Assembly: GCA_964016885.1 (NCBI GenBank)
Contig: OZ024742.1
Location: forward strand, 130,944,001-131,008,000
Origin: Eledone cirrhosa
Lineage: Eukaryota
Direction of reading: 5' to 3'
DNA length: 64,000 nucleotides
Each line of letters opens with the position of its first letter. Within the stretch, counting starts at the first letter, position 1. Both the position numbers and the translations under genes were made by a program. Below the pieces are notes generated by a model. It had not been told where the DNA came from. It was given only the letters and a program-made list of their open reading frames with translations, and searched no databases. Of this stretch, positions 29,702 through 48,205 are shown piece after piece.

Positions 29702-29758
29702 AAGTCCTTCTTCAGTGACCCTCCAACCGTCCCAGGCATTTCATCGCTTTAAGGGCCA
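29702..29758 (-). ncRNA. Candidate non-circularly permuted hammerhead, truncated at the predicted cleavage site
   Basis: Minus strand: UGGCCCU-UAAAGCGAU-GAAA-UGCCU...-AGGGUCA-CUGAAGA-AGGACU. Confidence 0.55.
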
Positions 29759-29818
29759 TTATATATATATATATATGTATACACACACACACACACACAC
29801 ACATATATATATATATAT

Positions 29819-30645
29819 AGCTCTTTTCGTTTCATAACTTTTTGTATTTACCGCTGTGACCCTGCCTGCTTTGGTCGATCTGTGTTCCCTCCACAATTTT
29901 GCATCGACCCTCCCTTCTCTCTTCCCTTCTCCTCCTCACTCTCGTTTTTTTTCTCTCTCCCCCTCTCTCTCTCTATCCATCCGTTCGGTTTTGATTGTTG
30001 ACATGTTTACACGTGCCGTGGTGGCCTCTCTGTCCGCAATCTTTGCGGTACGTTTTTACCACCGTCGTAAAAAAAAACCTTCTGGACCTTCTGGATTATC
30101 TCCCTTTCCCTTCTCCTCCTCACTTTTGGTTGCCCGCGTCTCTCTCTCACTTTCTCCTGTCTATGTGAGAGGCAGCACGATTATACCAGCTCTGTGCCGT
30201 AGCAGACCACCAGGCTAAAGTCTTCCAGGTTGGCCACAACTTACTTTCCCTATTTTTCCACGGTTACGTTTTTGCATGTTTCTTTCACCTGTGTCTTCCG
30301 ACGATGGGATCTGTACACTGCTTTTTCTTCTATTCCTTTCCTATTTTTCCCCTTCTTCCTCTCTCCTCACCCCCCCCGTTCTTCCTCCTTTCCCTCTCTT
30401 TCCTTTTCTCTCTCCTTTTTTCTCTCTTTCTCTCTCCTTTTCCACCTGGCCTTTTGATTAATAAAAGGCCTCGGACACACCCGAACTACACCGATGTCCT
30501 GTAATTCAGCGTCGAAACATCGGTTCGGGATACATTTACAGCTGACGATGGAAACTCCTTTTTTCTTTCTCCTCCTGTTCCGTCCTAACCACCATCCTAA
30601 ACCTTGTTTTTAGTAACCATACAGCTCCTATCGTTTCATAACTTT
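29819..30645 (+). mobile_element. Pyrimidine-rich non-coding element with 23-bp terminal direct repeats between (TA)n tracts
   Basis: AGCTC.T.TCGTTTCATAACTTT at 29819 and 30623. Confidence 0.55.
30490..30557 (+). ncRNA. Candidate non-circularly permuted hammerhead
   Basis: ACCGAUG-UC-CUGUAA-UUCAGCGUC-GAAA-CAUCGGU...UUACAG-CUGACGA-UGGAAACU. Confidence 0.6.
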
Positions 30646-30735
30646 ATATATATATATATATATATGCACACACACACACACTTATATATGTATATATATA
30701 TATATAAACCTATATATAATATATATATATATATA

Positions 30736-31343
30736 TACAAATGAATATATGATAGGGATAAACACTGATACAAGTATACATGTGTTCGCATTGCAAACGA
30801 CCAAGTTAACTAGACTGAAAAATACTAATTAAAATAATACGGTTTGCCTGTCTCGATTTAAAATAATAAATCAATAAAAACAAACCTATATTGGCAATAG
30901 CCGTCATACCTGGACAAATTTTTTATTTGTTTCGCAACAATTAAGTGAAAGTTACTATTCCTGTGCTCTTCTGCGGGTATCCAGAAATTGGTAAGTTTCA
31001 CTTCAAAATACTTAAGAAGACTGAGAGAGATGTGCCTTCAACAAGACATTTCTCTCAGTCTTCTTAAGTATTTTGAAGTGAAACTTACCAATTTCTGGAT
31101 ACACGCAGAAGAGCACAGGAATAGTAACTTTCACTTAATTGTTGCGAAACAAATTAAAAATTTATCCAGGTATGACGGCTATTGCCAATATAAGTTTGTT
31201 TTTATTGATTTATTATTTTAAATCGAGACAGGCAAACCGTATTATTTTAATTAGTATTTTTCCGTCTAGCTAACTTGGTCATTTGCAATGCGAACACATG
31301 TATACTTGTATCAGTGTTTATCCCTATCATATATTCATTTGTA
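30736..31343. mobile_element. Fold-back element with ~298-bp inverted arms and a degenerate hammerhead (CAGAAGA core)
   Basis: Arms 30736-31033/31046-31343; minus strand 30906-30980 reads GAAA-CAAAU(AAAAA)AUUUG-UC-CAGGUAU. Confidence 0.8.
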
Positions 31344-32227
31344 TTACATGGCTCAGAAATATTCCTTTCTTTGAACTATTTAATTGTAAAAGACTATTTT
31401 GAGTTTATAACTCTATATATAATATATATATACATACACACACATATATATATATATATATATATATATATATATATATATATATATATATATATATATA
31501 TATATATATATATATTATATATATATATATATATATATATATATATATATATATTATGTATATGTTTGTATATATATATATATTTATATATATATATATA
31601 GTATATACATATATCTCTCTCTCTCTCTCGCTCTCTCTCTCTCTCTCTCTCTCTCTCGCTCTCGCTCTCGCTCTCTCTCTCTCTCTCTCTCTCTCTCTAT
31701 ATATATATATATTATATATACGTTGTATATATATATATATATATATATATATATAAGTAAAAGGAAAAGAAAATGCTGACAAATTTTTCCCAGTGAAAAA
31801 TAGTTTAATTAGGAATAAGTATTGGTTAGTATTCAGTTTTAGTTTTAAGTTTTTACTGGTTGCGCATTTCTAATGCTTTTCAAAAATAATTTTGAGATAG
31901 AACGCCCGTGATATTTGCTCTAACCTGATCAGTTTGGAAAATTCTTCCTGTTTTATGTGAAAAAAGTGGCTCCAGAGGTATTAAGATTTGGTTGGTTGTT
32001 GAATATCACGTGAATGAGTACTATAAATTTCGCGCCAATTCGTGTTTTAAAAATTCTTGTAGTTAAAACAATTTTGATTGGTCGGTAGAGGTCACGTGAA
32101 TGTTAAAAATTGATTTTGCGCCAAATGTAGGTTTGTCGAAGAGTGTCATTTTCGCCTGATTGAGAAGTCACTGAAAAATAATTTTATTAAGACAAATATG
32201 TGTGTGTAGTAAAGAGGTTCATTGTTG

Positions 32228-46153: not shown

Positions 46154-46355
46154 TGTTGGATTGGCAGCATCGGTAGAGCGTCGGAAAACATGCTTTGCAG
46201 CATATAGTTACATCCTTTTACGTTCTGTGATTAAATCTCACCGAAGGTAACTGTGCCTTTCATCCTTACGAGGTTGATAAAATAATGTACTAGTAACGCA
46301 CTGGAATCGACCCACCTCTCAAACTATTGGTCTTGCGCCTAACCCAGAAACCATT
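46154..46355 (+). mobile_element. Degenerate Deu/Nin-like SINE
   Basis: GGATTGGCAGCATCGGTAGAGCG ... GCCTTTCATCCTTACGAGGTTGATAAAAT. Confidence 0.75.
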
Positions 46356-46873
46356 ATTACCTCGGGCTGAGGTTAAGTGGAATTTGGTGGGCAGAAACTG
46401 CATGGCGTGTTTTGAGCACCTTTAGCCTGGCGGAACTCGTCCTTCTCCGAGCTGGCTTACAGCCGATTGGTTCGAAAGAAAGAAAAGAATAGAAAGAAAG
46501 TAAGAGAGAGAGAGAAAGATATATATATATATATATAAATGTATATATATATATGTATATATCTATATATATATATACAGAGAGAGAGAGAGATGTATGT
46601 ATAGTATATTTGGCAATATACCGTATGTTTAATTAAAAACATTTAGAAGGCCATACGCTATCAATTTTAAAGTAGTAAACTTCTTGTCGGCGAAAGAAGG
46701 GAGAGAAGCTGACAGTCTGTTTCACGCTGATCAGAGCCACGTACTCCCCTGCCTTCGCCGAAAATTATAGAAAATTATAGAAGCTGGATTCCTGATTTTT
46801 ACTGGAATTCTATAAGAATCTAGCTTCTATTATATATATATATATATATATATATATATATATATATATATAT

Positions 46874-47568
46874 AAAAGAAATAGGATTTCGCTTCAAGCA
46901 TAACTTTATACAATATATATAAATATTTCGTATCTCCAAAGAAATACTGTTTTAGGAAGCCGTAACTATGCAAACACCGGGGGGCTAACGCCCTCTGGTG
47001 ATGTCCAGCAGAAGCAAGGGCGACAACCGTCTATGCATTTCAGGCTTAACTGGCCTTCGTCAGGGCAGTCCCTCCCACCGCTTGCGACTGCTGGACTAGA
47101 AGACAGCTGAGAATATATACTTTTCTCGTCTGTGTAAATGAGGTGATTAATCTCATTTGCATATGAAGCTGCATAAGTTGGCTCCACTTATAATAAAAAA
47201 GAAATAGGATTTCGCTTCAAGCATAGCTTTATACGAAATATTTACTCACATTGTATAAAGCTATGCTTGAAGCGAAATCCTATTTCTTTTTATTATAAGT
47301 GGAGCCAACTTATGCAGCTTCATATGCAAATGAGATTAATCACCTCATTTACACAGACCAGAGAAGTATATATTCTCAGCTGTCTTCTAGTCCAGCAGTC
47401 GCAAGCGGTGGGAGGGACTGCCCTGACGAAGGCCAGTAAAGCCTGAAATGCATAGACGGTTGTCCCCCTTGCTTCTGCTGGACATCACCAGAGGGCGTTA
47501 GACCCCCGGTGTTTGCGTAGCTATGGCTTCCTAAAACTGTATTTCTTTGGAGATACGAAATATTTATA
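46874..47568. mobile_element. Fold-back element with ~316-bp inverted arms plus a partial tandem unit
   Basis: Arms 46918-47234/47253-47568; 46874-46911 repeats 47197-47234. Confidence 0.88.
47416..47461 (+). ncRNA. Minimal type I hammerhead (mirror copy 47025-47070 on the minus strand)
   Basis: GACUGCC-CUGACGA-AGGC(CAGUAAA)GCCU-GAAA-UGCA-UA-GACGGUU. Confidence 0.8.
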
Positions 47569-47619
47569 CATAATATATATATATATATATATATATATAT
47601 ATATATATATATATATATT

Positions 47620-48205
47620 ATGAAATACTGTGTGCTTCTTGCTCATAATAATTTCTATACTTGCAGTATTTTTCTCTATATTTTATTACATATATTTACC
47701 CAAACTGCGATTCTGTGTTTTTTTTCTCTCTCTCTTACTGCTCCCCTATTCTCTCTGTTTCTCCTACCTTCTTTCGCCCCCTCTGTCATGTCAGTTAACT
47801 CTTCCTCACACTTTCACTCATTCACTGTTTCTCCTCTCTTCATTTCATCCTGTACACCACGAAGGCTATTTTTCTCTCTTCTCACATGGCCATCGTTCGT
47901 GTCAGGTCTTTTTTCTAAAGCGCTCATATATTCATCTAGCTTATGCTAAACAGAATAATTTTGAAGCTTGTTTCTTTCCCCTACGGTTAGCTATACTCTT
48001 TGTTGTTCTCCTGTCTCACTCGCTTTACGCGTTTCAATTGTCCTAATAACTTATTTTGGTTATTATTGCACCGACGTGAGGTATATGATTTTTAATGCAA
48101 TGAAATATCTATGATCGTCGGCAAATCACTGATGAGGGACTCATTTTATTACATGTTATCCATGTGCTACCTGCAGTATTTTTCTCTATATTTTATTACA
48201 TATAT
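47620..48205 (+). mobile_element. Pyrimidine-rich non-coding element with a ~38-bp direct repeat, (TA)n-flanked
   Basis: 47658-47695 recurs at 48168-48205. Confidence 0.55.
48071..48142 (+). ncRNA. Candidate non-circularly permuted hammerhead
   Basis: CCGACG..AGGUA-UA-UGAUUU-UUAAUGCAAU-GAAA-UAUCU..CGUCGG-C-AAAUCA-CUGAUGA-GGGACU. Confidence 0.62.

Follow-up and report, generated by a model that had tools for sequence, protein, structure and literature searches.

The question raised by this locus is whether an RNA in which the conserved blocks of the hammerhead ribozyme stand in reversed order can still be a self-cleaving hammerhead and, if so, what type of element carries it. The locus is a stretch of 64,000 nt from Eledone cirrhosa (GCA_964016885.1, OZ024742.1 positions 130,944,001-131,008,000, forward strand; hereafter the window), in which three repeat motifs contain the cleavage-site block NUH (S), GAAA (G) and CUGANGA (C). 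Hammerheads of types I-III have the cyclic order C, G, S, whereas the order in these repeats is S, G, C. Eckert et al. (2023, PMC10085705) describe this order as type SGC, which by their account is known solely from metatranscriptomes: their 583 sequences include none from the genome of a known organism, and no SGC RNA is reported from their search of RefSeq 85. Our search of the open-access literature revealed neither rearranged hammerheads from Naiad elements or animal genomes nor a description of the fold presented below. As judged by comparative sequence analysis, the repeats are real, abundant and structurally constrained, and they are likely to be an active hammerhead of new architecture that is tied to Naiads. 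It is probable that the blocks in S-G-C order, of which the genome holds about 20,000 copies, form a self-cleaving fold and derive from the 3' end of a Naiad-type element.

Core blocks, copy number and covariation

The first-pass annotation of this DNA had placed three copies of one motif at 30490-30557(+), 48071-48142(+) and 29702-29758(-) (copies 1, 2 and 3, respectively), and all three are present at these positions. A descriptor with the order NUH-stem I...GAAA-stem III'...stem I'-CUGANGA matches twice in the window, which confirms the reversed block order; the mean in 100 block-wise dinucleotide shuffles was 0.01, and none of the 100 reached two matches. H17 of the two matches lies at 30498 and 48085, the residues after which cleavage had been predicted. 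The common layout of the three copies is real and copies 1 and 2 are complete, but copy 3 is 5'-truncated and cannot form the core. Each motif represents a separate repeat subfamily (F1, F2 and F3 for copies 1, 2 and 3). A search of Rfam at E ≤ 1 returned no hammerhead family among the 150 listed of 162 matches, all of those listed being microRNA families driven by microsatellites.

Copy number was determined in the 3.0 Gb assembly that contains the window. A first look gave 963, 1356 and 1065 candidates for the three motifs, and the 40 scored for each had 95-100% identity. Scored F2 matches were 100% identical, and this subfamily has therefore been mobile recently. A genome search with a reversed-order pattern, which had been proposed as a check on the annotation, gave matches far above control: the pattern GCNNNGAAA-N18-34-CTGANGANGGA (GAAA...CUGANGA) occurs 10,150 + 10,126 = 20,276 times, compared with 9 + 13 = 22 for its reversed control. 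When the S block was included and F2-type linkers excluded, there were 5,478 + 5,316 matches versus 45 + 83, and additional patterns recovered more distant subfamilies. That the motif is a product of chance or of assembly has next to no probability and is already refuted by these counts, which are about three orders of magnitude above control; covariation among subfamilies (see below) also weighs against it, as does the presence of this layout, as seen by eye, in consensus sequences published for other phyla, and no point in its favour was found. In metagenome contigs searched with the pattern of G and C blocks, none of the 115 matches listed forms stems I and III, and therefore the S block does not accompany this pattern by chance. 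Twelve of these contigs (L310, L311, L314, L323, L327, L329, L337, L338, L343, L350, L351 and L363) contain a multi-copy CUGAGGA-hairpin-GAAA motif in canonical order; from its sequence, this is probably host DNA with a type I hammerhead of minimal form.

For comparative analysis, 205 unique candidate strings were collected, from which 33 were dropped (no UH at the tested offsets, or an upstream microsatellite). The remaining 172 were clustered at 85% into 51 groups, and 18 of these (inversion or truncation junctions, type I tandem artefacts and the L131/L147 family) were excluded to leave 33 representatives. Related to the last of these exclusions, loci L123, L131, L137 and L146-L148 belong to a GCCUG-GAAA...CUGACGA-CGG family that matches the G and C pattern and has no clear stem I. 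Across the 33 subfamilies, the two stems proposed in the first-pass annotation are borne out by covariation: the six stem I positions pair in 33, 32, 30, 32, 31 and 25 rows and the four stem IIIa positions in 28, 31, 29 and 30, and stem I pairs occupy the first three places when 1,275 column pairs are ranked by corrected mutual information. Both stems are in register with the core, as in a hammerhead.

In the 33-row alignment, the H position was picked from five offsets to maximise pairing, a choice avoided by a second set of 70 unique strings from the subfamily group that includes copies 2 and 3 (the copy-2/3 group); these were selected by the blocks G and C plus one strand of a hairpin upstream, with the S block ignored. 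Position 16.1 is U in all 70 strings, H17 is A in 45, C in 25 and never G, and a UAA linker is present in 69. The repeats thus contain a hammerhead core of CUGANGA, GAAA and UH (H not G), of which the first two blocks were fixed by the search patterns and hence are not evidence of constraint. Because positions 16.1 and 17 are fixed while the letters of stems I and III vary freely, the constraint has the pattern expected of cleavage chemistry. In this chemistry, the 2'-OH of H17 makes an in-line attack, with the participation of G12 and G8, and the products carry a 2',3'-cyclic phosphate and a 5'-OH. If the repeats react in the same way, the cut would follow the UH, i.e. after 48085 in copy 2 and after 30498 in copy 1.

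Stem II and the helices around the core

Stem II had been thought to be reduced to at most one pair. The alignment does not support this, as 86-89% of cells are paired between the strand that precedes GAAA and a second strand upstream. The upstream strand, X, lies just 5' of stem IIIb, and the resulting helix was named PX. A second helix, P0, is formed by the tail behind CUGANGA and a strand still more distant on the 5' side, and a hairpin (H0) is located between the P0 and PX strands. The first-pass annotation had missed all three helices, as well as the kink-turn motif described below.

A blind helix scan over all column pairs of 16 subfamilies placed IIIb, I, H0, P0 and PX at the top of 11 helices (IIIa being split by a gap column), and the same scan of 14 other subfamilies placed I, P0 and PX at the top of 19. 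In a model of six helices, 93.1% of cells are paired and 21 of the 31 pairs show double changes, a result matched by 0 of 500 shuffles, while slid controls of the model pair 27-47% of cells. With all 33 rows, in which P0 and H0 are partly misregistered, 80.8% of cells pair and double changes are found at 28 of the 31 pairs. The shuffle tests ignore relatedness; on the branches of a tree of 16 rows, double changes number 12 for IIIb, six for I, four for H0, two each for P0 and PX, one for IIIa and zero for a direct stem II. Single-strand folding, which cannot represent pseudoknots, recovered H0 in five of five sequences and P0 in four of five (best or centroid fold).

A direct stem II, in which the tail behind CUGANGA would join the strand that precedes GAAA, was rejected: it pairs in 35.0% of cells compared with 32.6% in shuffles, 105 of 500 of which were as high. 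This result bears on the view that the repeats are ordinary type SGC hammerheads in which stem II is one pair, and P0, H0 and PX are peripheral or part of an inactive alternative fold. Penelope-like elements are known to contain minimal hammerheads whose stem II is very short, and in 9 of 16 rows of the copy-2/3 group position 11.1 is paired to the tail base, with four pair types, which is more often than it is paired to strand X. In the copy-1-like group and relics, by contrast, 11.1 finds its partner in strand X in 13 of 17 rows (12 of them G-C, the usual hammerhead 10.1-11.1 pair) and in the tail in one of 17. As the blind scan also yields PX and P0 in both groups, we consider a one-pair stem II quite improbable.

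The relationship to type SGC (HRIMA-1 and the SGC variants) can be defined from the published descriptions (PMC10085705). Block order, core letters, stems I and III and a link of approximately 3 nt from stem I to the strand of stem II that precedes GAAA are the same, and in both cases the far end of stem III is closely joined to other helices. Type SGC has a direct stem II and a helix that joins stems I and II, whereas the repeats have P0, H0, PX and the kink-turn motif instead. The joining helix ("I") is absent from the blind scan, and just 0-6 nt separate IIIb' from stem I'. Because neither the direct stem II nor this helix could be found, the repeats are filed as a variant, and not a member, of type SGC; the reported lack of SGC RNAs in RefSeq 85 would fit a descriptor that requires a direct stem II. 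Type CSG, described from two metagenomic sequences (PMC10085705), has the same reversed cyclic order as the repeats but keeps CUGANGA next to the stem II strand, an arrangement that was seen here (by eye) in published nematode and spider Naiads only. The architecture of the repeats thus appears to be a new variant, a reversed-order hammerhead with a split stem II in animal repeats, and it breaks the assumption made by the discoverers of these types that CUGANGA stays joined to the stem II strand. If the two ends of the motif were connected via P0, the result would be an RNA of CSG order with an insertion between A9 and 10.1.

A kink-turn is defined by a 3-nt bulge and then tandem G-A/A-G pairs between two helices. 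From its sequence, the IIIa/IIIb junction of the copy-2/3 group has this pattern, with a 3-nt bulge and then GA (69 of 70 strings) opposite GA (55 of 70; UA in eight). The bulge, the tandem pairs and a U-U or similar pair match a box C/D-like kink-turn, located here inside stem III; F1 lacks it and has a 5-nt bulge instead. In the proposed fold, stems I and III are in hammerhead register and PX, formed by the strand before GAAA and strand X, would serve as stem II, with A9 and position 10.1 joined via the P0/H0 junction and not by the backbone. Because X runs straight into IIIb and IIIb' runs straight into stem I', stem III must bend sharply. The kink-turn (in F1, the 5-nt bulge) may fold stem III back on itself and so bring together the distal ends of I, PX and IIIb, which would close a cage around the core.

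The repeats, Naiads and a possible helper

An association with (TA)n and Penelope-type elements had been suggested for the motifs, and it is supported by the anatomy of the insertions and their 3' (TA)n. Tandem arrays define units of 494 nt (F2), 720 nt (F3) and 772 nt (F1), with one motif each. The units are pyrimidine-rich, and the longest ATG frame in the three is 71-90 aa, leaving no frame for a reverse transcriptase or endonuclease. F2 and F3 units align solely over 110 nt at the motif, plus one 17-nt match. Behind CUGANGA, the insertion ends after 61 nt in 11 of 22 F2 copies, after 55-56 nt in 11 of 25 F3 copies and mostly after 96-109 nt in F1, and a (TA)4 run is found within 200 nt on the 3' side in 21/22 (F2), 24/25 (F3) and 29/30 (F1) insertions. 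The 5' ends are variable, tandems are present and inverted copies were found at 5/30 F3 and 3/30 F1 loci (some loci overlap). A fixed 3' end, a variable 5' end, tandem and inverted copies and a (TA)n target have been described for Penelope-like elements and Naiads (PMC8557442). By these traits, together with 5' truncation and the lack of a reverse transcriptase or endonuclease frame, the repeats can be classified as non-autonomous Penelope-like elements. No transfer RNA (tRNA) genes were found in the three reference loci; elsewhere, five loci scanned from L241-L251 (approximately 153.75-153.83 Mb) contain tandem tRNA-Leu genes and variants.

Like the repeats, non-LTR (long terminal repeat) retrozymes are described as non-coding tandem units of low GC content with one ribozyme each, for which mobilisation by Penelope-like elements has been proposed (PMC7229834; Li et al. 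2026, bioRxiv 10.64898/2026.07.22.740005). Their ribozyme is a type I hammerhead and their units are 150-450 bp, whereas each unit here (494-772 bp) has one reversed-order motif instead. By analogy with retrozymes (PMC7229834), tandem transcripts of the repeats would be cut to units, which may be circularised. Reverse transcription may then start internally at a fixed site, with insertion at AT-rich DNA, as in a Penelope-like element of Anolis (PMC11167929).

Naiads insert in (TA)n and have been reported to lack a canonical hammerhead (Craig et al. 2021, PMC8557442). Eight families are flagged by these authors as "HHR_half_core", in which the other half of the core is found at a distance of 35-50 nt, on one side or the other. 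We compared the motif by eye with the published consensus text (nothing was computed, and names assume that the file order is that of the table), viewing the 3' part of approximately 25 of 54 Naiad records. A reversed-order motif is present in 15 of these. Blocks in S-G-C order with P0, H0 and X are found at the 3' end of Naiad_Amil, Aacu and Anas (Acropora), 2_Movir (Morbakka), Plae (Pomphorhynchus), Obim and Ovul (Octopus), Esco (Euprymna, with a weak PX) and two further records, so that the hosts span cnidarians, an acanthocephalan and cephalopods. C-S-G order with a direct stem II was seen at the 3' end of five other records, namely Parc, 2_Nbra, 3_Nbra, Smim and one more, and nematode and spider Naiads are among them. 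Of the eight "half core" families, five could be identified, each with the reversed order. Records Ppla, Skow2 and three others were ambiguous, and no motif was seen in the last 500-600 nt of CGi, Ppac, Asuum, Omin and Adux.

There are closer links to the published Octopus sequences. The Octopus Naiad records have a U-rich H0 loop and the kink-turn motif in common with F2, and in old and seemingly low-copy relics of the motif in Eledone (L177/L201, L202, L203, L204 and L225) the linker is that of the published Octopus Naiad 3' end; L203 is single-copy, with no open reading frame (ORF) attached. In their published form, Naiads resemble the repeats in (TA)n targets, 5' truncation, partial tandems, inverted 5' copies and 3' RNA layout (PMC8557442), and differ in being autonomous, as the repeats encode no protein (longest ATG frame 90 aa). 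Based on these sequence comparisons, the motif is likely to be the ribozyme that was thought to be missing from Naiads. The puzzle of Naiads "lacking" hammerheads would then have an answer, namely that descriptors for the canonical order or a direct stem II cannot see this fold.

A broader proposal can be put forward with somewhat less confidence, although we still lean towards it: that an architecture with a core of four strands, its backbone open between A9 and G10.1 and spanned by the P0/H0 junction and its stem III bent by a kink-turn, is the normal self-cleaving RNA of many Naiads across animal phyla, that the SGC and CSG forms are circular permutations of one reversed-order ancestor, and that it powers a retrozyme superfamily with about 20,000 copies in the Eledone genome. 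If true, rearranged ribozymes would acquire a host, a functional context and an evolutionary route (circular permutation via tandem pseudo-LTRs). The reversed order is in any case an abundant and recently spreading part of an animal genome, which offers thousands of natural variants for structural work.

The genome was also searched for a helper element. A DKA-motif pattern gave 38 matches, for which 30 loci plus 4 were read, and one is a decayed Naiad-type reverse transcriptase that itself has 152 genome matches. In its best full-length relatives, the reverse transcriptase domain is near the C-terminus and an N-terminal GIY-YIG match is present in four of seven scanned, an arrangement as in Naiads. 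One protein search with the decayed sequence found no relatives, two Naiad-derived patterns gave 0 genome matches, and no Penelope-type frame joined to the motif was found upstream of 20 divergent motif copies among the output listed. The window itself contains a broken Penelope-like element with a reverse transcriptase plus a GIY-YIG endonuclease at the C-terminus (Pfam) at 33203-36135(-), as well as a second endonuclease fragment at 54470-55288(+); a protein search with the window endonuclease found 12 relatives. A canonical element such as the broken one is a candidate for the present helper.

This raises the possibility that the ribozyme is functional but that a canonical Penelope-like element with a C-terminal endonuclease, and not a Naiad, mobilises the repeats and perhaps gave rise to them. 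Canonical elements are present and several of their clades prefer (TA)n, all Naiad-type reverse transcriptase matches seen in the genome are decayed, and Craig et al. call cephalopod Naiads long inactive (PMC8557442). Conversely, the same authors report ordinary hammerheads for canonical clades, no CUGANGA was seen behind the ends of the two canonical ORFs of the window (over approximately 700 and 400 nt), and the closest published motif sequences are Naiad 3' ends. Present helper and origin may differ, and a canonical element in place of a Naiad in these roles is held here as a tentative alternative only.

Several results weigh against a self-cleaving fold of Naiad origin. P0 and PX are short, and on the 16-row tree each of them has six pair-breaking changes alongside its two double changes. 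Hammerheads usually retain the 10.1-11.1 pair, and in the copy-2/3 group 11.1 is loose, with a standard partner in just 9 of 16 rows (tail nine, X five). Single-strand folding gave unremarkable z values (-1.0 to -2.9), and the folds of copy 2 and of locus L066 favour a local hairpin that swallows CUGAUGA or stem I'. Although the identical F2 copies point to recent mobility, no intact Naiad was present among the scored genome candidates (with a stricter first look in one of the searches), and in 20 stretches behind decayed Naiad reverse transcriptases the motif could not be recognised. Among 100 of 209 rows listed, 5' junctions fall at the predicted cut in one of 32 distinct insertions (by eye), and most of the 32 start at TA microhomology. 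This absence of enrichment fits an uncut or circular template, and there is no sign of cleavage at the DNA level. Finally, hammerhead cleavage of the Anolis element needed protein, and hammerhead mutants had no effect on its insertion in vitro (PMC11167929).

Because cleavage was dispensable for insertion in Anolis, there is room for a non-catalytic role, in which the fold is real but no longer cuts and is kept as a recognition or priming signal for a helper reverse transcriptase, possibly bound by a kink-turn protein. The junction data and the Anolis mutants are in line with this, as are the fixed 3' ends directly behind the motif and the weak 10.1-11.1 pair in the youngest families. It does not account well for the 70 strings, in which U16.1 is invariant and H17 is never G, whereas the letters of stems I and III vary freely, and we regard loss of cleavage as unlikely. 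A self-cleaving RNA from a Naiad-type 3' end is the preferred explanation for the repeats.

The copies and neighbouring features in the window

Copy 2 is a complete ribozyme candidate of family F2 at 48040..48140 on the + strand (E 1.4e-23 with a model built from relatives). Its element, approximately one 494-nt unit plus tail at 47658..48208(+), lies between (TA)n runs, the 3' one being at 48200..48284. In 5' to 3' order, the helices are P0 (48040-48043 x 48137-48140), H0 (48044-48050 x 48059-48065), PX (48066-48070 x 48096-48100), IIIb (48071-48076 x 48116-48121), IIIa (48080-48083 x 48106-48109) and stem I (48086-48091 x 48123-48128). The kink-turn motif consists of UGA (48077-48079), the bulge (48110-48112) and GA (48113-48114). 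U16.1 is at 48084 and H17 is A48085, after which the cut is predicted, and the remaining core comprises the UAA linker (48093-48095), GAAA (48102-48105) and CUGAUGA (48129-48135).

Copy 1, also a complete candidate, belongs to family F1 and occupies 30439..30554(+). It is located in an element of approximately one 772-nt unit plus tail (29819..30645, +) that is flanked by (TA)n runs, faces copy 3 head to head and ends at a (TA)n-rich run (30645..30737). P0 is formed by 30439-30443 x 30550-30554 and H0 is at 30447-30471. PX (30474-30478 x 30509-30513) has one mismatch and, relative to the family, one double change from G-C to A-U. IIIb (30480-30485 x 30524-30529) and IIIa (30491-30496 x 30518-30523) are separated by the 5-nt bulge at 30486-30490 that replaces the kink-turn. 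U30497 and C30498 precede the predicted cut (after 30498), and they are followed by stem I (30499-30504 x 30536-30541), GAAA (30514-30517) and CUGACGA (30542-30548).

Copy 3 is a 5'-truncated F3 insertion at 29654..29759(-) that starts at (TA)n and has a (TA)n run (29609..29653) at its 3' end. It retains stem I, the linker, GAAA, III', stem I', CUGAAGA (29715-29709) and the 3' tail. The 5' strands of P0 and stem III, H0 and X are absent, making core formation impossible. Intact F3 relatives have AGGCA-UA before stem I, which pairs with UGCCU.

Hammerhead motifs of canonical order also occur in the window. Type I motifs with a palindromic or very short stem III, as are typical of Penelope-like elements, were seen by eye at 29410-29468(+), inverted at approximately 29294(-), and at 43508(-) and 8336(-). 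A type I hammerhead-like motif with a long stem I is found at 47423(+) and 47063(-) in an inverted pair of arms of approximately 300 bp, and this element is also present in L408. A perfect 95-bp inverted repeat at 43135-43230 has CUGACGA on both strands and is probably an inversion junction. Other repeats include tandem elements of the long interspersed nuclear element (LINE) type at 444-5699(+), with copies to 25187, the first of which has frames of 597 and 1153 aa (endonuclease, reverse transcriptase and zf-RVT). A 2.2-kb (CAA)n-rich array with higher-order periods of 76-101 bp is located at 39458-41705.

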